Shown here: one piece after another, positions 2,379-61,760 of the stretch
How the letters are laid out: each line of letters starts with the position of its first letter
How positions within the stretch are numbered: the first letter of the stretch is position 1
Assembly: GCA_044353585.1 (NCBI GenBank)
Contig: JBILBR010000010.1
Span: forward strand, 15,353-79,352
Length of the DNA: 64,000 bases
Reading direction: 5' to 3'
Origin: Crocinitomicaceae bacterium
Lineage (GTDB): Bacteria; Bacteroidota; Bacteroidia; Flavobacteriales_D; Crocinitomicaceae
Made by a program: the position numbers and the translations under genes
Notes under the pieces: generated by a model
What the model was told of the DNA's origin: nothing
The model's input: the letters and a program-made list of their open reading frames with translations, nothing else
Database searches by the model: none

Positions 2379-3542
2379 CTAGACATTGAACTCAATAAGT
2401 GATGGCTCTATTTCAATTCGATACGGCTCTCCCCTACTTCCTTTGATGTAATAGTTCTCTGCAATCCGCTGACCTAAGGTTTGCTTAATGACACTGCGAA
2501 TACGTGATAAGGTCTCATTTAAATTATTCTCCAACGGGTCTAGTAATAAATTCAACGATTCATCAATTTCCTCTATCGAGCTAAAGGTAGAAAAGCGGTG
2601 ATATAGTTCCCCAATCTCATTTCGGTGGTCCACCAATTCCACGAGTCTTACCCCTTCCGGATGCTTTAAGAAGAAACAAAAGATGGCCCGCTGTTTAGGA
2701 TTCAAATTCAATTCTAAGTTTCCATAATCCGTAAAAAATATCCGATGTGTATATCCCGTGATCCGTATAGAACTTGGTCTATTCAAAAACACGGAACGTT
2801 CGATCGAAAGAAAATACTTCCTTATACCCTCCATGGTTTCAATTAATTGGGCAAAAATCCGCACATCAACTGATGTTTCTTTGAGCAGCGCCATGCAATC
2901 CATGCAAATATCCGCGGTTCTCATTTTAAGGACTATTTGACGTTTATCCTGACAAAAATCAGACATACAACCACGTGGGTCCATATGCCAATAGTTGGAC
3001 AATTGACTGTGATCCTTAACAATTAACATACGGAGGGTCCAGGCAATCACTTCATACGCGATTGGAAAACGTTCATTCAAGCCATCAAAATAGTGATGCC
3101 AATCTGCCGTGTGAATAAATGCATTCTTCATCGAGTTGTCGGCATTACCAAACCAATTTGCCTCATTCGCTGTATCCGTTAGCAAAATAACTAAATCTGA
3201 ATCTGGAAGTTTATGTGACAACCTGTAGTAGGTGCACGCATCAAAAAAATGCTGCCATTTGGCTTTATTTGTTTTGTGAGGGAAAGAAATACGAGGTCTT
3301 TCGGACATCGAATAGGTTTTCTTATCTGCGGATTCTAACATATTGGAAAACACAATTTCGGGCTCCTGCGCTAACTCAAACGCTTCTTTAGATTCGATTT
3401 CTACCGCAATGGCATTTGAAATATGCGCATCCGATTCAGAGGCCATAAATTCAACGGGACCTTGATACTGCCGTAAAATGTGGAGTACAGCCTGATAGGT
3501 ATGGGCAGAAAAATCAGCAGAACGTATTAGATGTACTTTCAT
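2379..3542 (-). CDS. hypothetical cytoplasmic protein: unknown N-terminal domain, Cys4 cluster, C-terminal winged-helix (OmpR/PhoB-type-like) domain
   Basis: 387-aa ORF whose start overlaps the vWA stop (ATGA at 3539-3542). It has a Cys cluster (GCMSDFCQDK...ADICMDCM). The C-terminal LNPKQRAIFCFFLKHPEGVRL...LSRIRSVIKQ...YYIKGSRGEPYRIEI fits a winged-helix DNA-binding pattern. Confidence 0.7.
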   Translation of the reverse strand: MKVHLIRSADFSAHTYQAVLHILRQYQGPVEFMASESDAHISNAIAVEIESKEAFELAQEPEIVFSNMLESADKKTYSMSERPRISFPHKTNKAKWQHFFDACTYYRLSHKLPDSDLVILLTDTANEANWFGNADNSMKNAFIHTADWHHYFDGLNERFPIAYEVIAWTLRMLIVKDHSQLSNYWHMDPRGCMSDFCQDKRQIVLKMRTADICMDCMALLKETSVDVRIFAQLIETMEGIRKYFLSIERSVFLNRPSSIRITGYTHRIFFTDYGNLELNLNPKQRAIFCFFLKHPEGVRLVELVDHRNEIGELYHRFSTFSSIEEIDESLNLLLDPLENNLNETLSRIRSVIKQTLGQRIAENYYIKGSRGEPYRIEIEPSLIEFNV

Positions 3543-5467: not shown

Positions 5468-6859
5468 ATGACCTTAATAAAATCAATCTCTGGATTTCGT
5501 GGAACAATCGGAGGCCAGGCCGGTGATAACCTCACCCCTATCGACGCCGTGCTTTTTGCTGCGGCTTATGGCACGTGGTTAAAGAACCAAACTTCTGATC
5601 AAACCATACGGGTAGTAATTGGGCGAGACGCGCGTATTTCTGGTCCGATGGTTTCAAACTTAGTGGCAAATACCTTGATTGGCTTGGGAATTCACGTAAT
5701 CGACTTAGGTCTTTCAACAACCCCCACCGTAGAGATTGCCGTACCGTTAGAAAAAGCCCATGGAGGGATTATTCTGACTGCTTCGCATAATCCGAAGCAA
5801 TGGAATGCCCTAAAGTTATTAAATCATCGCGGCGAGTTTTTATCTGCTCAAGCCGGTGCAGAAGTATTAGCGTTGTCTGAGGCAGGAATATTTGATTTTG
5901 CATCCGTAGATGAGCTCGGAACACATACGCACGATGATACCTACCTAAGCAAACACATTGATTCGATTCTCGCTTTACCCTTAGTTAATCGTTCCGCTAT
6001 TGCCGCAGCAAACTTCAAGGTGGTTGTGGATGCAGTGAATTCGTCTGGTGGGATTTTTGTCCCTGCCTTGCTGGATGCATTGGGTGTAACTCAAATCACT
6101 AAATTATACTGTGAACCCACAGGTCACTTTCCGCACAATCCAGAGCCCTTACCTGAACATCTTGGAGATCTAGCTAATGAAATAAAGTCCACCCAGGCCG
6201 ATCTTGGTATTACCGTTGATCCAGACGTAGATCGCTTAGCGATGGTTTGCGAGGACGGAAGCATGTTCGGAGAAGAATATACGCTCGTGGCTGTTGCCGA
6301 TTATGTGCTCTCTAAAACTCCGGGAGCAACAGTTTCAAATTTGTCTTCTACCCGTGCCTTGCGTGATATAACCGAAGAATGGCATAAGCAATCCTATGCG
6401 GCAGCCGCTGTAGGTGAAGTGAACGTAGTAGAAAAAATGAAAGCCATACACGCCGTTATTGGCGGGGAAGGAAATGGTGGAATCATCTACCCTGAGTCGC
6501 ATTACGGACGGGATGCCTTAGTGGGCATCGCCCTGTTCTTGAGCCACTTGGCAGATAAGAAATGTAAGGTATCCGAATTAAGAGACCATTATCCGGCGTA
6601 TACTATTTCTAAGAATAAAATAGAATTAACCCCGAACGTCAATGTGGATGACATTCTTAACAAAATGGCTCAGGCATACGCTCACGAGGAGGTTGATACC
6701 ACAGACGGTGTAAAAATATACATCGGAAAAGAATGGGTTCATTTGCGAAAAAGTAATACGGAACCGATTATACGTATCTACTCTGAAAGTAAGAATGCCG
6801 AAGCAGCTGACGCATTAGCCAAGCGTATAATAACTGAAATTCAGGCGATTATAAAATAA
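5468..6859 (+). CDS. glmM: phosphoglucosamine mutase (alpha-D-phosphohexomutase family)
   Basis: 463 aa with the active-site loop ILTASHNPKQWNALK and the Mg-binding DPDVDR motif. Confidence 0.88.
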   Translation: MTLIKSISGFRGTIGGQAGDNLTPIDAVLFAAAYGTWLKNQTSDQTIRVVIGRDARISGPMVSNLVANTLIGLGIHVIDLGLSTTPTVEIAVPLEKAHGGIILTASHNPKQWNALKLLNHRGEFLSAQAGAEVLALSEAGIFDFASVDELGTHTHDDTYLSKHIDSILALPLVNRSAIAAANFKVVVDAVNSSGGIFVPALLDALGVTQITKLYCEPTGHFPHNPEPLPEHLGDLANEIKSTQADLGITVDPDVDRLAMVCEDGSMFGEEYTLVAVADYVLSKTPGATVSNLSSTRALRDITEEWHKQSYAAAAVGEVNVVEKMKAIHAVIGGEGNGGIIYPESHYGRDALVGIALFLSHLADKKCKVSELRDHYPAYTISKNKIELTPNVNVDDILNKMAQAYAHEEVDTTDGVKIYIGKEWVHLRKSNTEPIIRIYSESKNAEAADALAKRIITEIQAIIK

Positions 6860-9914: not shown

Positions 9915-10463
9915 ATGAAAATTTATACAAAGACAGGTGACGATGGCACCACCGGATTATTAGGAGGTGTACGGGTGAAAAAATCAGATATGCAGATTGA
10001 AGCATATGGCACCGTAGATGAACTAAATTCATACCTTGGGTTGCTTCGAGATACATTTGAGAATAAGTCCGCACAAGATCAATTGACTACAATTCAAAAT
10101 CAATTATTTGTTATCGGATCTCACTTAGCGACGGCTGAAAAAGGAACCAAGATGACCTTACCAGAACTTGAAACCAATTCGATCGAACAATTAGAAGTTT
10201 GGATGGATGAAATGGATAATCAATTAGAGGCTTTACAGCATTTTATATTACCCGGTGGACACCCGATTAGCTCCTATGCTCAAATCGCTCGCTGTGTATG
10301 CCGCAGAGCAGAACGGAGAATTGTTGAAATGGATGAAGAAACTCACCGTTTCACTCATGAGATAAAATATATTAATCGCTTAAGTGACTATCTATTTACC
10401 CTCGCCCGATTCATTTTACAAGAATTTGGAAAAGAGGCCATTAAGTGGGAACCGAGCAGATAA
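9915..10463 (+). CDS. ATP:cob(I)alamin adenosyltransferase, PduO type
   Basis: MKIYTKTGDDGTTGLLGG is the family N-terminus. The ORF track start at 9873 overlaps ispH, so the ATG at 9915 is preferred. Confidence 0.88.
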   Translation: MKIYTKTGDDGTTGLLGGVRVKKSDMQIEAYGTVDELNSYLGLLRDTFENKSAQDQLTTIQNQLFVIGSHLATAEKGTKMTLPELETNSIEQLEVWMDEMDNQLEALQHFILPGGHPISSYAQIARCVCRRAERRIVEMDEETHRFTHEIKYINRLSDYLFTLARFILQEFGKEAIKWEPSR

Positions 10464-12554: not shown

Positions 12555-15500
12555 TTACTTTTGATTCAAATTCAAATACCTTATTTGAACTACTAATTGA
12601 TTTAATTGATGTTTCATATCGAGTTCCGTCAGTTGAATTTTGATAAGATTTCGCTTAAGATTAAGCCAAGTGACTTGGTCTATTTCTCCTTGTTCAACCT
12701 GAGTATTCGAAATTAATTGAACTCCTTTTGAAACCTCCTCTACTCGGCTCTGTAATTGATCATATACCGATTTATATGAATTATATTGTGAAATCAGGGA
12801 GTTAAATTGAGCAGATAATGCTGATTCCAACTTCACTAAATCATAATTAATTCGTTCGCTTTCCAACATAAGCCATTTACTGCGTTGAATCGTTGATCTT
12901 GAAAGCAGAGGAATAGACACCCCAAAGCTTCCGCCTTGAAATCGATCTGCGGAAGTAAAAGGGGCAACTCCGCCGTTCAAAGGAATATTGCCTACTAATG
13001 TTTGGTTAAAGTATCCCAATTGAATATCAGGCATGGACAACGAACGCTGTAAATCATGTTCCTGAGCAATGGTTTTCAAGGATTGATTTGAGACCTTCCA
13101 TTGTGGAGAATTTTGAGGTTTGAAGCCAAGGACTAATGAATCTAGGCCTAATAATTCATAGTTTATATTAAGAGACTCTAGTTCAGCTTCGGACAAAAAT
13201 ACGCGCTTAACTAATTCGGATTGGGCCTCTATCAACAAACGCTGATTTTCTACTACTTGTTGTTGAATCAACAAATGATCAGATGCCAATAACCATGATT
13301 CTAATCCATTGGTCTCACCACTATTCAAACGCATGGAAACCTTGGTTTCGAGAGACATCAAAGTACTATCCTCTGTTGATAAGATTGCTTGCTTTTTGCT
13401 CAAATAAAGCCATTGTTCAATAGCCTTCGCCGCCTCCTCTTCAAATTTCAGTTTGTTAAACTCATAGGATAACATCCGTTCTTTAGCACGTTCTACTCCG
13501 AGAGATTTTGCATGCTTAAATGCTGTAGGGAAAGGAATGACCTGCTGAATTGAAAAATTATTATCTCGCTTATAATTGGAATTATATTGACCGATCATTG
13601 CATTAACCTCAAGTTTATTGACTTGAACCATAGCTAATGCCTCTGGTTTTGCCTGCAATATAAAAATGGAATCAGCTTTCAATGCAGGATCCTTGGAAAC
13701 AGCATGTTTTATTAAATCACTTACGCTCGACTGAGCAAACAACTGATTACCAAAAAAGAGAAAAATTATCGGAATAATTGATTTGATATTGAACTTAATA
13801 CGAGTTTTTTCACTGAACAAAAAATAAAGAATCGGAAGAAAGAAAAGGGTCAAAAATGTTGCCGTAATTAATCCCCCAATGACTACCGTTGCCAGTGGTT
13901 TTTGCACTTCCGCACCACTCCCATGCGATAATGCCATCGGCAAAAATCCAAGTGAAGCTACAGTTGCGGTCAATAAAACTGGTCGTAATCTAGATAAGGT
14001 TCCTTTGATTACAATTCGAAGAGAATCTTGTTGACCATTTCGTTTTAGTGTATTATATTCTGTAATCAGAACGATCCCATTTAATACAGCTACACCGAAA
14101 AGTGCTATAAATCCGATACCTGCTGAAATAGAAAATGGCATATCTCGAATAAACAAGGCCCAAATTCCGCCAATTGAAGCTAACGGAATAGCTGTAAAAA
14201 TCATAAGGGCTTGTTTTAATGAATTAAATGTCATGTACAGTAGGAAAAATATTAATAATAAGGCTGCAGGTACTGCAATGAGTAAACGTGCCGAAGCCTC
14301 CTCTAAATTTTTAAAGGATCCTCCTACTGTGTAATTATATCCAGGAGAAAAAGCGATGTGTTTGTTCATTTTGAGTTTCAATTCATCAACTACACTTTTT
14401 ACATCTCTCCCTCGAACATTAAATCCCACAAGCACCCTACGTTTAGCATTATCACGTTGGATTTGATTTAAACCAGCCTTGTATGAAATCGTTGCTAATT
14501 CCGTGATTGGAATCATAGCATGAACTTTTGAATCAACAAAAATGTCATTTAAATCCATAGATTTCGAGCGATACATACTATCAAGTCTCACCACCAGTGA
14601 AAATCGTTTTTCACCTTCATAAACATAACCTGCACTACTCCCTGCAAATCCTGCATTAATTGCATCATTAACTTCTTCTACACTCACACCGTAATGGGCC
14701 AAGGCTGGACGGTTATAATTGATCATCACTTGTGGCAAGCCCTCAAGTTGTTCAACATACAAATCCTCCACACCCTTAATTTTTAAGGCTTGCTTCCCAA
14801 TCTGTTCTGCATAATTTTCTAACATGGTAAATTCTTCCCCATAAATTTTTACAACAACATCCTGTTTTGCGCCAGTCATTAATTCATTAAATCGCATTTG
14901 TATGGGTTGTTGAAAACCGAAATCAACTCCGGGCACGTTACGTTCTAAGGTTTTCTTCATTAAATCAGCTAAGGCCTCTTTTGATTCTGCATTTTTCCAT
15001 TGACTTTTATCTTTAAGAATAATCATTAAATCGCAAGCCTCCATTGGCATTGGGTCAGTCGGAATCTCCGCAGTACCAATTTTTCCTACTACCTTTTTCA
15101 CTTCAGAAAAATTTTCAATAAGTACATTGGACGCTTCTTCAGTTTTAGCAATAGTATTGGTTAAACTTGCACCAGGCAATAAGCGCATCTCAACTGCAAA
15201 ATCTCCTTCATCAAGATTTGGAATAAACTCTGCCCCCAAACGACTGAATAAAACAATAGATACAATTAGGATGGATATTATTATTGGAATCACTAGACGC
15301 TGACGACGAAAAACCGCGAAGAACATGGGCCTATAAACCCGTGTAATGTTATCCATAATTCTATCACTAATTGACTTTTTATGGGTAATGTGTTTTGACA
15401 ACACTAAGGAAGACATCATCGGCACATAGGTTAAACTTAAAATCAAAGCTCCCACAATGGCGAACATAACGGTAAGTGCCATTGGTTTGAACATTTTACC

Positions 15501-37673: not shown

Positions 37674-39098
37674 CTATCTATTGGCAATCATTGAAATGGC
37701 CTTATTTCTTCCTTCAATTATCTCGAGTTGTAACTTAGATAACTTATTCAATACTGAAATTAAAGACTCCCCACCGAATTCCTTTTCAACCCAATGGCTA
37801 TTGTAGTCGCCCATATTATATTTTTCAGGCTTATACATACTTGCGTACAAATCAAGCAGTTTAGTTACATCCTTCGGATTTACAATCTGACCTGAATTCG
37901 TAAGCAATTTTTCAAATTCTTGAATTCGTAATACAGAAGAATTGTTTTCTAAACTAATTTTAAAATTGGTAGTGTTGTTTGAATACGTACCACAAATTTC
38001 AACCAATTTATCTCTATAATCATTAAAACCCATCCATATCGTTCTGTAAGCTTTTGATTGTCGGTATGTATTTTCATCAAATGGCCCCAAAACTCGCCAA
38101 CTCACTTCCCTATTTGACTGATACATAATAGCATTAGCATTCAATTTAGCAGGTAATAGCGGATTATTATCATTGTATTTTACCCACAACAAACTATTAA
38201 AATCATTAACTCTTACATTATTGTTAACCGCCTCACCAGCCTCCTTCAAAAGTAACAACTTTAAATCATCGATATTCTTAATTAGATTTTGTGCTAATCC
38301 ATCGACATCATCGATTGCTTTTAATTTTGATTTTACTAATCCATCTCCAGCGCTATCAACAGCACCTTTTGTAAGTTCAATTTGCATCAAATCACCAACA
38401 TAAATCTTATTAACCATTTCATCATGTAAAACAACTTGTTGGGATAACATTGAATCGGTAATTTTTATTTTATTATTATTCGCAATGAGTAACATCGAAA
38501 AAAGGGGAATTAAAACAATCGGAATAGATTTATCTGATATGCCAAACAACCCTCTTCGTTGATCCACATCACTCATAAAATAAGCCACAAATGAAATTAC
38601 GAAAGAGATACTTCCAACGAACATAAGTTCATTTACCCCTGGCCAATGCATTAAAAAGAAAAGAAAATAAATTGCAAGAATTGAAACACCAACATTTAAA
38701 AAAACATGGATGAACCTATGAGTAGAAGTGCGGATTGCCACAGACCTTATAAAAAAGATAATTGATATGAAGGTTATGGAAAAGATCAACATTTCGTTAC
38801 ATCCAGGCCAGTGCATAATTTTGAATAAAAACCCTTGAATCATAATGGATAATAACACATGGAATGTAATGGTGAAAAATTTAGAAAATCCTTTGATTGA
38901 CGGATCTTTTCGAAAACCAATTATTAAACTTGAAATACTTAAACCTAACATTCCTAAAATCAACATCTCATTGCATCCTGGATAATGGGATACTTTCATG
39001 CCGTAACCCGCAACAGTAACAATCATAGAGAGATAAATCAAATAATCTCCAATGTTATTTCGTCTGACTTTTTTTTCATTAACTAAATTTTCATTCAT
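37674..39098 (-). CDS. 7-TM protein with three PorL/GldL-like TM-hairpin repeats and a GldM_N-like periplasmic domain
   Basis: 474 aa. The motif K(V/I)xH(Y/W)PG(C/V)NE(M/L) occurs three times (His38, His96, His151). A 7th TM is followed by a soluble domain ending FGGESLISVLNKLSKLQLEIIEGRNKAIS, which resembles the GldM N-terminal domain. Confidence 0.65.
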   Translation of the reverse strand: MNENLVNEKKVRRNNIGDYLIYLSMIVTVAGYGMKVSHYPGCNEMLILGMLGLSISSLIIGFRKDPSIKGFSKFFTITFHVLLSIMIQGFLFKIMHWPGCNEMLIFSITFISIIFFIRSVAIRTSTHRFIHVFLNVGVSILAIYFLFFLMHWPGVNELMFVGSISFVISFVAYFMSDVDQRRGLFGISDKSIPIVLIPLFSMLLIANNNKIKITDSMLSQQVVLHDEMVNKIYVGDLMQIELTKGAVDSAGDGLVKSKLKAIDDVDGLAQNLIKNIDDLKLLLLKEAGEAVNNNVRVNDFNSLLWVKYNDNNPLLPAKLNANAIMYQSNREVSWRVLGPFDENTYRQSKAYRTIWMGFNDYRDKLVEICGTYSNNTTNFKISLENNSSVLRIQEFEKLLTNSGQIVNPKDVTKLLDLYASMYKPEKYNMGDYNSHWVEKEFGGESLISVLNKLSKLQLEIIEGRNKAISMIANR

Positions 39099-39376: not shown

Positions 39377-40555
39377 ATGAAACGCGTGGTTGTTGGTCTT
39401 TCCGGCGGTGTTGATTCCAGTGTAGCTGCTTACCTCTTGATTGAACAAGGGTATGAGGTGATCGGGATGTTTATGCGCAATTGGCATGATGAAACCGTCA
39501 CCCTTTCCAATGAATGTCCGTGGATTGATGATGCGAACGACGCCTTACTTGTTGCGCAACACCTTGGCATTCCATTTCAAGTCGTGGATTTGAGTGCGCA
39601 ATATAAAGACCGTATTGTAGACTACATGTTCCGCGAATACGAGGCCGGAAGAACGCCAAATCCCGATGTACTCTGCAACCGAGAGATTAAATTCGATGTG
39701 TTTTTAAAGGAAGCCCTTGCGCTTGGCGCAGACTATGTAGCCACCGGACATTATTGCCGTAAGCTAATTCATGAAGATGGGACACACGGTTTATTGAGTG
39801 GGCTCGATGGGAACAAAGACCAGAGTTATTTCCTTTGTCAAGTGAGTCAGGAGCAACTTCAACGTGCCCTCTTCCCTATTGGCGACTTAACCAAGGCGCA
39901 AGTGCGAGAAATTGCAAGCGAGCAAGGATTACTTACCGCAGAGAAAAAAGACTCTCAGGGCCTATGTTTTGTGGGGAAAATTAGTCTGCCTACTTTTCTG
40001 CAGCAACAATTAGCCGCTAAACCTGGACCGATTATAGAAATACCTACCACGCTTCCACAATACGCCAGCTACCAAACGATACCGCATGATTTAGCGCATG
40101 TAGTGGAATTAGCAAAGCCATTTACCTACGAAGTTTCTATGGGAGACCAGGTTGCAACACACCAAGGCGCTCACTATTACACCATCGGACAACGCAAAGG
40201 CTTGCATATCGGCGGACGACCTGAACCTAGTTTTGTATTGGCAACAGATACACAAACGAATGTGATTTATTCAGGACAAACCGATGAACATCCAGGATTA
40301 TATCGACGAGCACTTAAACTGAGTTCAAATGAAATCAATTGGATTCAACCCATTGCTAAAGAATCGCTGGAAAATGGGGTGTCTTGTTCCATTCGGATTC
40401 GTTACCGTCAAGCACTGCAAGAAGGAACCTTAATTCAAAAAGAAGGAGTCTTGTATATATTATTTGAAAAACCTCAGCGAGGAATTACTCCCGGACAGTT
40501 TGCCGCTTGGTATCTGAACGATGAGCTGATTGGCTCGGGGATCATTGCGGAGTGA
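39377..40555 (+). CDS. mnmA: tRNA 2-thiouridine(34) synthase
   Basis: PP-loop [18 protein letters not shown] with catalytic Cys contexts. The ATG lies 4 nt after a TACCTTTG box (39365-39372). Confidence 0.93.
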
Positions 40556-40867
40556 TTACCATTTCTAGTCCGATGGAGCGGATGGTCTGTATGGCAAACG
40601 ATACAGTTTGAAATCTTACTTTCAATTCGTTTGCTGTTTGATGATATATAGAAATAAAATGTATATTCGTACAAGCGTAATAAACCTGCACCAATACACC
40701 GGATTTGGATTTATAAGCGAAGTTTTATAGCATCTATAAACAAGTTATAGGGCATTTTAATGGACCACGAAGAAGCAATGCGAGAAATAGGGTCACAATA
40801 TTCAAAAGTGTCGATTGCAGTTGTATTTTTAAAACTAGCCATAAGTCATTTAACAGTAAAATCTAAA

Positions 40868-41194
40868 ATGAAGAACATCCTCATAATATGTATAGTTTTT
40901 ATTGTTAGTATAGCTTTATATTCTCAAACAATAAGTTGTGTAAACAAGTTGGACTCATCTGATGTATTTGTAATTGCAAACAGACATCGTCCCTATTTGA
41001 ATAGATCCCGTGCATTACCAAAAATTTCATACGATGGTCAAAGTTGTACTTGGACATCAATAACTGCATCCAAAATGAAGTTTACCAACAGTCGGTTCCG
41101 AACTTGGAAAACAATTACGCTGGTAATTGATGACAAAACTGGTAAGATTTTATCTAGAAAAAAAGATAAACACAAAGTTCCGAGTTACGAATGA
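40868..41194 (+). CDS. hypothetical small secreted protein (cassette ORF 1)
   Basis: The ATG at 40868 gives MKNILIICIVFIVSIALYSQ (signal peptide), 108 aa. The ORF-track start at 40760 adds an unlikely extension. Confidence 0.5.
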   Translation: MKNILIICIVFIVSIALYSQTISCVNKLDSSDVFVIANRHRPYLNRSRALPKISYDGQSCTWTSITASKMKFTNSRFRTWKTITLVIDDKTGKILSRKKDKHKVPSYE

Positions 41195-41438
41195 AACAAA
41201 CCGTTTATATAACAACAAAAACTGGCTGAATAAAATAATAAATATTATTTCTGATAAATTCCACAAATTTGATGATTTTGAAGTCTACTTTGAAAGGAAA
41301 ATAGCGTTGACTGTATTTCCTGAGCTTGCAAGTAAACTGCATAATAAATATTGTCGACTATAGATTTTAGAAATGAAAAATCAATTCACTTAGAAAGATG
41401 GAGAACAAAATATGAAGCAAACTAGTGAAGAAAAAACG

Positions 41439-41571
41439 CCCTATAACAGGGGTTTTTCGCAACGCGGGGTTTTGTGTTTCAAAAAGTCATCCAGTTGCTT
41501 GGAAGTTAGCGTTACTTTTGATACATTGGATCCCTGAAACGCGCGCTGCGCAAAGCCGCGGACCGTTATGA
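41439..41571 (+). other. attC-like imperfect palindrome 1 (about 133 bp)
   Basis: CCCTATAACAGGGGTTTTTCGCAACGCG ... CGCGCTGCGCAAAGCCGCGGACCGTTATGAG. The outer boxes ATAAC/GTTAT and the inner arms are complementary with bulges. Confidence 0.45.
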
Positions 41572-41714
41572 GCAAGTTAAACAAACATAGCTGTTCAAAG
41601 CAGGCTGACCATCTAATGTGACAAACAAAAAATTGGAGACAAGAAAACCACTATAAAAACAGGGAGTATTCTGAAAATCCATAAGAGTAGGAACAAAATT
41701 AAATCTTAAATAAA

Positions 41715-42062
41715 ATGAAAAAATTATTGATTTTAGCAACGATGTTGCTTACACTTGGTTTTGCAAAGGCGCAAACTTTTGAAAAATCACTAGCTGGAAT
41801 GTACGAATCTACTAGTGGTAGCGATTGGGTATCTCTTAAAGATAATGGAACGGGAAAATTATGTATCACGAGTGATTATATGAACTTGGGTTGTTTGAGT
41901 TTTACTTGGACTTCAGATGAAGATCAAGTATTTATTAAATTCAATGATGAGTATGGTTACGAAACATCTAAATGGAGCTATTGGGCTAAAAAAAGTGGTA
42001 TTCTTAATCTCGATTTCCCGACTGGTTTTGGTCCTAATTTAAATTTTATCAAAACAAGATAG
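41715..42062 (+). CDS. hypothetical small secreted protein (cassette ORF 2)
   Basis: 115 aa with signal peptide MKKLLILATMLLTLGFAKAQ. Confidence 0.6.
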   Translation: MKKLLILATMLLTLGFAKAQTFEKSLAGMYESTSGSDWVSLKDNGTGKLCITSDYMNLGCLSFTWTSDEDQVFIKFNDEYGYETSKWSYWAKKSGILNLDFPTGFGPNLNFIKTR

Positions 42063-42165
42063 ATAGGTAAATTCATCATATTTGTTAAACACAGCAGTTT
42101 TGATACAAAATTATCGAGGAAAAATACGTAAACTAAAAAACCCAAAGAGTATTAATACAACCTCC

Positions 42166-42254
42166 CCATAACAGCGCGCAAGCGCCATATCCATGCCGTC
42201 CCGAAGCTTCGGGACAACACAGGACTACGCTCGCCTACACGCAAACCGTTATGG
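42166..42254 (+). other. attC-like imperfect palindrome 2 (about 89 bp)
   Basis: CCATAAC (42166-42172) is the exact reverse complement of GTTATGG (42248-42254). The central perfect stem is GTCCCGAAG/CTTCGGGAC (42198-42215). Confidence 0.55.
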
Positions 42255-42273
42255 TGTATTCTAATCAAATACT

Positions 42274-43005
42274 ATGAAATTTATATTATACATCGTGGGT
42301 TTTCTTAATACGTCAATTGTTCTAGGACAACAACATCAGAATGGAAACATGTATTTATTATATGATGTTCCTAGTAATAAACATTACAATATAGACCAAG
42401 AAATCATTCCAAAGACAATTGCTCCTGGTACGTTTTGGGCATTAACATTTGGATTCAACGAAATAAACGAAGGCGGTTATATTGGAATCCAAACAGATTA
42501 TAGTAGTGTAAATAAGGGATTATTTATTTTTTCCATTTGGAATGCTGTTGGCGCAGAAAAAGGGGACAAAGAATCTTTCATAGAAGATTTCGGAGGTGAA
42601 GGTGTCGGAAAAAGTTGCAGGATTTCAATCCCTTTGATAGTATCACATATTTACAGGTTAAGAGTTTGGCAGTTAGATTCTGATATTACAGGGACATACT
42701 ATGGTGCTTGGATTCTTGACAAGTCAATCAACAAAGAGTATTATTTAGGTAAAATAAAAACAAATGAACAATCAACTCTGTCTAATCGGGTGTCAAATTT
42801 TGTAGAATACTACGGTGAAAAAAAACCTTGCAATAAGGTTCCATTCTCTCGTGCTCTTTTTTATCCAATAAAATTTGATTGTGATGATAATAGCGGCGTA
42901 TGTAAATATATTTTTATGTCCAATAGGTATACATACGCAGATTGTGTTAATGGCAAATGTATTTTGAACGACAGTTATAGTAATGTTAGTTTTGGAGGAG
43001 AATAA
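42274..43005 (+). CDS. hypothetical secreted protein (cassette ORF 3)
   Basis: 243 aa with signal peptide MKFILYIVGFLNTSIVLGQ. The start is 20 nt after the preceding attC-like site and the stop is 7 nt before the next. Confidence 0.65.
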   Translation: MKFILYIVGFLNTSIVLGQQHQNGNMYLLYDVPSNKHYNIDQEIIPKTIAPGTFWALTFGFNEINEGGYIGIQTDYSSVNKGLFIFSIWNAVGAEKGDKESFIEDFGGEGVGKSCRISIPLIVSHIYRLRVWQLDSDITGTYYGAWILDKSINKEYYLGKIKTNEQSTLSNRVSNFVEYYGEKKPCNKVPFSRALFYPIKFDCDDNSGVCKYIFMSNRYTYADCVNGKCILNDSYSNVSFGGE

Positions 43006-43012
43006 AAACATA

Positions 43013-43098
43013 CCATAACAGCGTGTAAGCAATATTGCCCTGCCCCCGCACATGCGGGACAACACAAGGCAACATCGCCTGCACGCAAACCGTTACCG
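43013..43098 (+). other. attC-like imperfect palindrome 3 (about 86 bp)
   Basis: CCATAACAGCGTGTAAGCAATATTGCC pairs with GGCAACATCGCCTGCACGCAAACCGTTAC. The central stem is CCCGCA/TGCGGG (43045-43058). The 3' box GTTACCG runs into mnmA-derived sequence. Confidence 0.55.
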
Positions 43099-43187
43099 TC
43101 AAGCACTCCAAGAAGGAACCTTAATTAAAAAAGGCGGCCTGGTATCTGCACGATGAGCTGATTGGCTCGGGGATCATTGAGAAGTGA
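43091..43187 (+). pseudogene. mnmA: decayed duplicate of the mnmA 3' end
   Basis: CGTTACCGTCAAGCACTCCAAGAAGGAACCTTAATT...TGGTATCTGCACGATGAGCTGATTGGCTCGGGGATCATTGAGAAGTGA aligns with mnmA 40400-40555. It carries substitutions and an internal deletion of about 59 bp. Confidence 0.8.
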
Positions 43188-43207
43188 TTACCGCTTCTTC
43201 TTAGGTA

Positions 43208-43545
43208 CGACTCCAATGGAGTCGGTTTAGATACGGATAAGTGTTGCCCGTTATTATATTCGACTCCGATGGAGTCGGTTTAGATACGGATAAGAGTTGC
43301 CCGTTATTATATTCGACTCCGATGGAGTCGGTTTAGATACGGATAAGTGTTGCCCGTTATTATATTCGACTCCGATGGAGTCGGTTTAGATACGGATAAG
43401 TGTCGCCCGTTATTATATTCGACTCCGATGGAGTCGGTTTAGATACGGATAAGTGTCGCCCGTTATTATATTCGACTCCGATGGAGTCGGTTTAGATACG
43501 GATAAGCGTTGCCCGTTATTATATTCGACTCCGATGGAGTCGGTT
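43208..43545. repeat. 53-bp tandem repeat, 6 full copies plus a partial seventh
   Basis: The unit CGACTCCGATGGAGTCGGTTTAGATACGGATAAGTGTTGCCCGTTATTATATT starts at 43208, 43261, 43314, 43367, 43420, 43473 and 43526. Each has a perfect 7-bp hairpin CGACTCC-GAT-GGAGTCG. Single-base variants cluster in AAGTGTTGC. Confidence 0.95.
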
Positions 43546-43569: not shown

Positions 43570-43764
43570 TTAATTCAAACTCATTGAAAAGAAAATCGTT
43601 TGCTCCATTTCGGAAGCTTCGTTGTCTTTTTTGATTTGATCCATCAGGTTAGCCACTTCAAAAATCGACATCGTCGACTTGGTTCCTTGCTCACGGTGTA
43701 CGGAAAGTTTCAATTTAGCTTCGCGTACTACTTTACTTCTTAGACTTTGTTGATATTGTGCCAT
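43570..43764 (-). CDS. hypothetical small protein (64 aa)
   Basis: The ATG at 43764 (MAQYQQSLRSKVVREAKL...) is a likelier start than the ORF-track 43800. It lies 81 nt downstream of the nuclease gene on the same strand. Confidence 0.4.
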   Translation of the reverse strand: MAQYQQSLRSKVVREAKLKLSVHREQGTKSTMSIFEVANLMDQIKKDNEASEMEQTIFFSMSLN

Positions 43765-43845
43765 GGTTAAAATTTTGTAACGATGGCATCTTACGGACAA
43801 TATGTAACGAGGTTACAAAAATTATAAATCTTATCGAATCAGACC

Positions 43846-61472: not shown

Positions 61473-61484
61473 CAATCACAAAAT

Positions 61485-61686
61485 TCCTCCTTAGTCATGA
61501 CGAAGCACAGCTTGTCATGATGCCGACCGGAAGCGTCGGCACTCAGTTGGACAACTGATTTTAAGGTAGCAACATAAAAGGACATTCCTCCTTAGTCATG
61601 ACGAAGCGCAGCTTGTCATGATGCCGACCGGAAGCGTCGGCACTCAGTTGGACAACTGAATATAAGGTAGCAACATAGAAGGACAT
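61485..61686 (+). repeat. two tandem 101-bp tRNA-Asn-derived structured units (candidate ncRNA or leader elements)
   Basis: Units at 61485-61585 and 61586-61686 each begin with TCCTCCTTAG (tRNA nt 1-10). Each has a 47-nt two-hairpin insert followed by the D-arm segment CTCAGTTGG. They are in exact 101-bp register with the tRNA at 61687. Confidence 0.85.
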
Positions 61687-61760
61687 TCCTCCTTAGCTCA
61701 GTTGGTTAGAGCATCTGACTGTTAATCAGAGGGTCTCAGGTTCAAGTCCTGAAGGGGGAG
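61687..61760 (+). tRNA. tRNA-Asn (anticodon GTT)
   Basis: Manual cloverleaf. Acceptor TCCTCCT/AGGGGGA (one G-U), D arm GCTC-AGTTGGTTA-GAGC, anticodon arm TCTGA-CTGTTAA-TCAGA, T arm TCAGG-TTCAAGT-CCTGA, discriminator G. No encoded CCA. Confidence 0.93.

Follow-up and report, generated by a model that had tools for sequence, protein, structure and literature searches.

A candidate gene-end-replacing islet of integron-type cassettes within mnmA of a freshwater Flavobacteriales bacterium

By the usual view, integron cassettes reside at attI, beside their integrase. How, then, does a cassette array come to lie within a housekeeping gene, and how does that gene stay whole? The question is raised by a 64,000-nucleotide stretch of DNA (the window) from a Crocinitomicaceae bacterium (contig JBILBR010000010.1 of assembly GCA_044353585.1), in which a 2.7-kb block of integron-style cassettes (the islet) is located within mnmA, the tRNA 2-thiouridine synthase gene of this freshwater Flavobacteriales bacterium. 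The 3′ end of mnmA is present twice, once in the intact gene (copy A) and once on the far side of the islet (copy B), where it begins at the end of an attC palindrome. On the evidence given below, 40402-43092 is probably an inserted integron-type module, composed of a replacement mnmA 3′ end, a platform of ~190 bp and three attC-ended cassettes, and joined to the gene by recombination of the integron-integrase type.

The duplicated mnmA end and its boundary

The original prediction, made from the sequence of the window, held that a diverged copy of the mnmA end with an internal deletion starts at 43091, and our alignment agrees to the base: 43091-43198 is a diverged copy of 40400-40566, with 99 of 108 aligned bases identical (41 of 43 in the first block, 40400-40442 against 43091-43133, and 58 of 65 in the second, 40502-40566 against 43134-43198). 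The deletion, put at about 59 bp in advance, comprises exactly the 59 nt of 40443-40501, and because this length is not a multiple of three the second copy is out of frame; a remnant of its stop codon is retained at 43185-43187. Weaker similarity between the two copies extends beyond the stop codon, to ~40581/43225. On the 5′ side, the 12 nt preceding the two copies (TCCATTCGGATT and CTGCACGCAAAC) have 1 of 12 positions in common, and thus the mnmA homology does not enter the palindrome, which would have spoken for a coincidental overlap. The flank of the second copy is instead the right arm of an attC palindrome: 42231-42251 and 43075-43095 are 95% identical, and attC2 and attC3 are alike up to ...CACGCAAACCGTTA. 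As predicted, the bases that belong to both the attC homology and the mnmA homology are CGTTA only (43091-43095), at the position where integron integrases cross over. The chance of a random boundary landing in this 5-bp overlap within the 2.7-kb segment is roughly 0.2%, replicates not counted.

The joint of the window reads CAAACCG↓TTACCGTC (the arrow marks the crossover point) and lies at a GTT of the host gene; the right-hand core of attC3 is GTTACCG, with its G at 43092, and intact mnmA has GTTAC at 40401-40405. Insertion mediated by the integron integrase IntI through recombination of attC with a genomic site (attG) of the consensus 5′-GWT-3′ has been shown experimentally, as has excision via nearby genomic sites, which can rearrange the genome (bioRxiv 10.1101/2022.09.11.507474). 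The joint described here has the same form, with a host 5′-GWT-3′, a crossover at G↓TT and the attC to the left of the displaced host sequence. We infer that the crossover point lies between 40401 and 40402 and that intact mnmA is a composite, with a 5′ part that is native to 40401 and a 3′ part that is element-borne from 40402. The product of this gene is 95-97% identical to the homologs P0001-P0028 and has the same C-terminus.

Table 1. Features of the window and joints at the displaced mnmA end in other assemblies (the arrow marks the crossover point; L-numbers denote loci of related strains)
Feature	Positions	Strand	Basis or remarks
Intact mnmA (tRNA 2-thiouridine synthase, 391 aa)	39380..40555	+	Pfam tRNA_Me_trans HUH, M and C domains
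GTT in mnmA, codons CGT TAC of the RYRQ motif	40401..40403	+	Copy B and five displaced copies in other assemblies begin here
Copy A, probable replacement mnmA 3′ end (154 nt coding plus stop, ~26 nt post-stop ending TCCGATGGAGCGG)	40402..40581	+	Post-stop variant
Platform, ~190 bp non-coding, ends ...CTATAAACAAG↓TTA; cassette 1 begins 40745	40556..40747	+	Conservation across strains
Cassette 1: ORF (40760 or 40868 to 41194, secreted-looking, no Pfam match) and long-type attC1	40745..41565	+	Start/attC1 complementarity
attC1, long type	41439-41571	+	Imperfect palindrome after ORF 1
Cassette 2: DUF805 RNA motif in leader (41628-41697), 115-aa ORF (41715-42062), attC2	41566..42248	+	Rfam RF03081, attC model
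attC2	42164-42254	+	Covariance model, 60.5 bits, E 2.1e-15
Cassette 3: 243-aa DUF3472 protein (42274-43005) and attC3	42249..43092	+	Pfam DUF3472, E 1.1e-18; attC model
attC3	43012-43098	+	Covariance model, 69.5 bits, E 4.2e-18
Copy B, displaced native mnmA 3′ end, out of frame, 59 bp missing between 43133 and 43134	43093..43187	+	Alignment with copy A, and alleles
Native downstream: post-stop TTACCGCTTCTTCTTAGGTACG, then 6.4 copies of 53-bp tandem repeat	43188..43545	+	Tandem Repeats Finder score 641
Convergent small gene (64-76 aa), native right flank of mnmA	43570..43800	-	Homologs in distant and close relatives
Joint in L088: ...CTCGCAAAACG↓TTACCGTC	13644-13723		Displaced copy intact; then platform, further cassettes
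Joint in L098: ...GCCGCAAAACG↓TTACCGTC			Displaced copy intact; then platform, a cassette
Joint in L099 and L107 (same): ...GGCAAACCG↓TTACCGTC			Displaced copy intact; then native repeats; islet is one cassette only
Joint in L100/101: ...TTTGCAAAACG↓TTAGTGTC			Displaced copy full length, point-mutated; then native repeats
Joint in L110: ...GCCGCAAAACA↓TTACCGTC			Displaced copy intact; then native end

Recurrence of the joint, and empty sites in related strains

The window was compared with 30 related loci (L081-L110) from strains 91-97% identical in MnmA, which were found by protein search (about 30 relatives), and joints were sought in metagenome contigs with the pattern not-T + CGTTACCG.CAAGC... 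and by contig look-ups. In five further assemblies, the joint attC...CG↓TTACCGTCAAGC was found at the same nucleotide, with a different attC in each (Table 1; the L088 joint is at 13716). Since five independent assemblies show this joint with attC sites that differ, that of the window is not due to chance, and this recurrence bears out the proposal of site-specific recombination between an attC and a GTT inside mnmA. The GTT, proposed to be a secondary site, looks recurrently used rather than occasional. It is extremely improbable that the boundary is a coincidence or an artefact of assembly or duplication: the joint at 43092 itself is found in this window only, as the independent assembly L081, 100% identical over 40300-41700, ends at 41700, but equivalent joints occur in independent metagenome assemblies (JGI, ENA and Logan), and the low chance of a random boundary within the overlap was calculated before any replicate is counted. 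One of three metagenome matches, in L097, was rejected as a joint, being ordinary mnmA with a T-to-C polymorphism before CGTT.

Which of the two mnmA ends is native can be read from the close relatives. More distant species representatives from GTDB (L001-L080), of which the nearest are Flavobacteriales and Crocinitomicaceae metagenome-assembled genomes, have at most 81% MnmA identity and are thus too far removed to identify the native copy, being useful for the ancestral gene order only. In these, homologs of the small convergent gene start 5 bp past the MnmA match (L001, L002 and L012) or 8-12 bp past it (L028, L030 and L031), and the gene is also present in close relatives. Two lineages of close relatives (L083-85 and L091-92) have empty sites, in which, as the original prediction suggested checking, mnmA is followed directly by the 53-bp repeats: the layout is the mnmA stop, a 20-nt post-stop segment (TTAACGCTTCTTCTTAGGTA in L083-85, TTACCGGAGAAGAAAAGGTG in L091-92), a hairpin CGACTCC[A/G]ATGGAGTCGG, 1.4 copies of the repeat and the small gene. 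Sites filled with other cassettes are present in L082, L086/87, L088/89, L093-95, L096/103/104, L097, L099/107, L100-102 and L110. Downstream of copy B, the window has the sequence of the L083 empty site (TTACCGCTTCTTCTTAGGTACGACTCCAATGGAGTCGG and the 53-bp repeats), with one mismatch in the 20-nt post-stop segment, and copy B is therefore the displaced native end.

The alleles tell the same story. One variant of copy B, ATTAAAAAAG, is also carried by the empty-site strains L091/92 and by the gene copy of L110, and another, GCGGCCTG, by several relatives, both empty-site and array-bearing, while three substitutions and the 59-bp deletion are private to copy B and absent from the 22 other copies compared. 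Copy A has the C-terminus ...GIIAE of 30 of 30 full-length close relatives, and its post-stop variant (ATTTCTAGTCCGATGGAGCGGATGG) was seen in array-bearing strains only, never in empty sites; the homology of module-borne and native ends breaks off inside the first hairpin, at ...GATGGAG. The native-type variants, the private changes of copy B and the array-only post-stop of copy A together indicate that copy B is native and decaying, as had been proposed, and that copy A came with the islet. Thus, the locus has both the duplicated gene end and the empty sites that mark elements targeting the 3′ end of a gene.

Several further observations concern the gene and its surroundings. Between 39500 and 40555, DNA identity to L082-L103 is 88-90% over the 300 bp that precede the GTT and 94-97% over the 156 bp that follow it, a rise that would fit exchange or homogenization of gene ends, although constraint could also explain it. 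In distant MnmA sequences, the RYR residues are conserved and their codons vary, with about a quarter of the 80 loci reading CGTTA; the GTT site is therefore not universal. The 53-bp repeats (43208-43545), of which each unit holds the hairpin GACTCCGATGGAGTC, lie between mnmA and the convergent small gene, and number 6.4 copies in the window, 1.4 in the empty sites of L083 and L091 and about eight in L100. Just upstream of mnmA, 37674-39098 (-) encodes a membrane protein of 474 aa that has a GldL domain at its N-terminus; this gene is present in the window, L082, L091 and L103 and absent from L083, L086, L088, L093 and L096, and thus both sides of mnmA are variable. An extra LigB-family gene, which the window lacks, is located between the small convergent gene and an endonuclease gene in L093 (14352-15239), L096 (14979-15866) and L103 (14979-15866, -). 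Elsewhere in the window, 61483-61696 is a 101-bp tandem repeat (2.1 copies, 96% identity).

Cassettes, platform and the absent integrase

Between the mnmA stop codon and copy B, there are three co-oriented open reading frames (ORFs), the first of 144 or 109 aa, the second of 115 aa and the third of 243 aa; neither of the first two has a significant Pfam match. Each is followed by an imperfect palindrome whose left end carries ...TAAC and whose right end carries GTTA..., so that three attC sites lie on one strand within 1.7 kb, as in the co-oriented clusters of at least two attC sites that lack an integrase (CALINs). The sites have the architecture of attC, with AAC/GTT triplets, outer R′′/R′ boxes, an inner L′′/L′ stem and stronger folding of the bottom than of the top strand; compared with shuffled controls, the fold z-scores of the bottom and top strands are -4.4 and -2.4 for attC2 and -3.2 and -1.2 for attC3. 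A consensus of ten short-type sites, from the window and other strains, has a 5-bp R stem, a 4-nt one-sided bulge and an 11-bp L stem, and 5 of its 16 pairs show compensatory changes. Attempts with attC finders based on box complementarity missed true sites and gave many false ones, and these were replaced by a family-specific pattern and a covariance model, which was trained solely on sites of other strains and then run on the window. In the 64 kb, this model matched attC3 and attC2, the next best match having an E-value of 0.36, and it gave 0 matches in the ~0.9 Mb of mnmA surroundings from the 80 more distant species (L001-L080); Rfam scans gave no attC match.

The cassette boundaries are also those of integrons, lying at G↓TT with the first bases of each cassette completing the right-hand core of its own attC. 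The start of cassette 1, GTTATAGGGCATTTT (40744), is the reverse complement of the left end of attC1, AAAACGCCCTATAAC (41433), at 14 of 15 positions; the left end of attC3, ACCATAAC, pairs with the start of its own cassette 3, GTTATGGT, and not with GTTACCG; and the single cassette of L099 shows the same complementarity (GTTAGCGGT/ACCGCTAAC). This complementarity is the footprint of circular cassettes opened at G↓TT. It bears on the idea that the hairpins were recombined by a non-integron enzyme acting on folded single strands, either of the Xer type, as with CTX phage, or an HUH transposase cutting next to TTAC. In favor of such an enzyme, no IntI was found locally, the joint reads TTAC, which is the target tetranucleotide of IS608, and the spacers of the sites have an unusual geometry. 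The conserved AAC/GTT, the outer reverse complements of 7-9 bp, the G-T pairs of the bottom strand and the cassette starts that complete attC are, however, integron hallmarks, and no HUH or Xer gene is present in the precomputed Pfam annotations of neighboring genes. We therefore give a non-integron enzyme little probability.

The leader of cassette 2 deserves separate mention. The DUF805 RNA motif (Rfam RF03081, gathering score 51.1) was matched at 41628-41697 (+) of the window with 64 bits, and also at 4765-4831 of L082 (75.8 bits), 11353-11416 of L088 (52.3 bits) and 3320-3388 (-) of L098 (76.1 bits). It occupies the 5′ leader of unrelated cassettes, within ~60 nt of the preceding attC in the window and L088, and in L082 and L096 its truncated start adjoins the mnmA remnant. 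A literature search on this motif found nothing pertinent.

Between the mnmA end and the first cassette lies the conserved platform. Its type 1 form has a mean column identity of 84% (six copies), and this similarity collapses right after GTTA; the end reads ...TATAAACAAG↓TTA in the window and ...A[AC][AG]G↓TTA in type 1 generally, and we take it to resemble attI1 (...TAAAACAAAG↓TTAGGC). A second platform type or hybrids are present in L082, L093, L098, L100 and L110, and the first cassette after the platform differs from strain to strain. We considered whether the platform is itself an attC and rejected this, since neither strand gave a fold signal in three variants (z from -1.6 to +1.05); nor does it hold a left-end complement of GTTACCG. 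Because it does not fold like attC, the platform is regarded as attI-like, and we propose from these sequence features that it acts as attI and possibly also as a promoter; a putative promoter pair of the Bacteroidetes type, TTTG...TATATTCG, may be read at ~40636-40668.

In L088 and L098, the unit of mnmA end plus platform also occurs inside the array, between ordinary cassettes and with G↓TT on both sides. Judged by their arrangement, these internal copies are consistent with what a second insertion at the mnmA GTT, resulting in stacked modules, would leave. The platform of L088 is present in two nearly identical copies; its two mnmA ends agree at 145 of 156 positions and are therefore not a fresh in-place duplication. 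The same units are what one would expect if the locus were a sedentary chromosomal integron that has the mnmA GTT as its primary attI and its integrase elsewhere or lost, with the mnmA end and platform forming a cassette-like unit and with arrays growing in place by cassette insertion or exchange and by homologous replacement after DNA uptake. Such units would not be without parallel, since attI-derived (delta-attI) sites inside the arrays of mobile integrons are functional, those of class 1 included (PMC12901181), and the near identity of the L088 platforms, next to mnmA ends that differ, also speaks for this explanation. Against it, the platform does not fold as an attC and offers no left-end complement of GTTACCG, and the gene would be destroyed by any cassette that entered at its GTT and brought no replacement end. 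A sedentary integron is rather unlikely in our estimation, but the sequence alone cannot separate it from the insertion of a module.

Several points weigh against an inserted module joined by an integron integrase. The window and the 30 related loci (up to ±10 kb each, less at contig ends) yielded no integrase. A tblastn search with an IntI1 query gave nothing with an E-value <0.4 in the window or L001-L106, a scan for the RHRY-type catalytic motif gave none in the window or L081-L099, none of ten window ORFs has a recombinase domain in Pfam, and the precomputed Pfam annotations of neighboring genes, the sole check for L107-L110, contain no Phage_integrase family in L081-L110. The recombinase is hence hypothetical, and the claim that there is no resident integrase holds at this scale only. 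The spacers of the attC sites are asymmetric, with 1 nt facing 4-5 nt, a geometry that we take to be unlike that of class 1 sites. The core of the joint deviates in L100 (G↓TTAGTG, 5489-5500) and L110 (A↓TTACCG, 10364-10372), and L093-95 lack a displaced copy, with a type 2 platform directly after the stop codon. In L082, L096 and L103/104, the remnant starts at ATTGGCTCGG and not at the GTT, the distal joint running from a truncated left half of an attC through a fragment of a DUF805-type leader into just the final 33 bp of mnmA; because the attC is truncated there, we read this boundary as an old secondary deletion. Furthermore, the different attC sites at the displaced ends could stem from cassette insertion at one ancestral hybrid site, and the six joints may represent fewer than six independent hits on mnmA. 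Finally, integrons have rarely been recorded in Bacteroidota, where IntegronFinder 2.0 gives one complete integron, in Salinibacter. As a side observation, the L100 core TTAGTG is also the core of an attC in L096; the deviations in L100 and L110 may be mutations or traces of the way in which cores are exchanged.

The content of the islet bears on a further explanation, that the locus is the remnant of a conventional integrative element, such as a prophage or an integrative and conjugative or mobilizable element, which used its own tyrosine integrase at the mnmA 3′ end and later lost it, so that the two mnmA ends are attL and attR and the attC sites are incidental. A replacement gene end is a classic habit of such elements, and a 50-bp duplicate of the mnmA end without cassettes in L073 would suit them. 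In six array contexts whose attC sites differ, however, the left boundary falls exactly on the G↓TT of an attC; about ten different islets hold cassettes only, with no integrase or other element genes; and units are stacked inside arrays. We consider such a remnant improbable. In the window, the islet holds three small cassette ORFs only, with no integrase of its own, and none was found in the islet variants of relatives; it is therefore not a conventional integrative element, nor is it a complete integron, there being no intI beside the attI-like region. Neither the attC family nor the platform end was matched in scans of viral contigs. The L073 duplicate just mentioned (1560-1720, in a Flavobacterium sp. 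metagenome-assembled genome) comprises the last ~50 bp of mnmA, repeated ~80 bp past the stop codon, and may be an independent scar, left by integration or excision at the same gene end in another genus.

Our data suggest a model for the insertion of the module as follows. A tyrosine recombinase of the integron-integrase kind, encoded outside the window, would act in trans on a circular intermediate or a replicated copy of one, in which attC3 is predicted to be fused to copy A (...CACGCAAACCG↓TTACCGTCAAGCACTGC). The folded bottom strand of the last attC of the module would recombine with the double-stranded GTT in mnmA, joining the G of that attC to the TT of the gene. As the incoming DNA starts with TTACC... 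and the remainder of mnmA, the gene is rebuilt in frame; its native 3′ end would be pushed 2.7 kb downstream, where it would escape selection and decay. The platform end AAG↓TTA would be the attI-like crossover point at which the array begins. Beyond this locus, the chances appear evenly poised that it represents a family of integrase-less, self-repairing modules (mnmA end, platform and array), mobilized in trans, specific for the GTT in RYRQ codons, stacking in tandem and exchanged among freshwater Crocinitomicaceae-like strains.

Comparison with known systems

By the features tested here, the islet qualifies as a cluster of attC sites without a nearby integrase, and its joint matches attC × genomic-site insertion as far as sequence features can tell. 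Similar to CALINs and sedentary chromosomal arrays, it has several co-oriented attC sites that each close a small promoterless ORF, homogeneous and clade-specific sites, strain-variable content and no integrase nearby. Unlike these, its array starts at an attI-like region after a housekeeping gene and not at intI, it is flanked by a duplicated gene 3′ end, and tandem copies of the block can occur. Cassette insertions at so-called secondary sites have long been known, and the islet resembles attC × attG recombination in that the partner of the folded attC is a double-stranded genomic GTT which lies in no recognized att site. The attC × attG experiments yielded scattered, usually single cassettes that disrupted their targets, whereas the islet occupies one recurrent site in a gene of the essential type, and that gene is repaired.

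Replacement of a gene end is familiar from other elements. Phage 21 and e14, which insert at icd, and many islands in tRNA and tmRNA genes carry a replacement for the end of their target gene, and similar to the islet they have the 3′ end duplicated at both ends of the insert, a functional gene, the native end downstream and empty sites. In contrast, such elements use their own integrase by attP and a simple core, and the islet has no integrase and an attC hairpin as its right-hand att site. Chromosomal integrons of Xanthomonas are fixed next to ilvD, with intI present, often decayed, beside the array. They share with the islet a fixed position by a housekeeping gene and arrays that differ between strains, but their neighbor gene is neither cut nor duplicated, whereas the islet has no intI and a duplicated mnmA end. 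Comparable to the internal units of the related arrays are delta-attI cassettes, in which an attI-like site inside an array is able to serve as a cassette boundary; these consist of attI1 or attI2 fragments, belong to clinical integrons of class 1 or 2 and lack a segment of a host gene (PMC12901181).

A search of the literature linking integrons with mnmA gave irrelevant co-mentions only, and one on integrons and Flavobacteriales gave nothing pertinent. We have not seen a description of any locus that combines a recurrent site in a housekeeping gene with a replacement for the gene end, an attI-like platform that lacks intI and array-internal copies of that unit. Insertion at genomic sites was demonstrated in the laboratory only recently, and the locus appears to be a natural, population-level example of it; here, the gene-end-replacing strategy of phages and genomic islands appears with integron sites and no local integrase. 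A structured DUF805 RNA leader that travels with integron cassettes also seems notable. If the proposed insertion is true, integron recombination would have been co-opted for a gene-end-replacing islet in a phylum where integrons are barely documented. With its defined sites, empty and filled alleles and stacked modules, the locus offers a system for the movement of cassette arrays, the origin of integrase-less arrays and integron activity in Bacteroidota.

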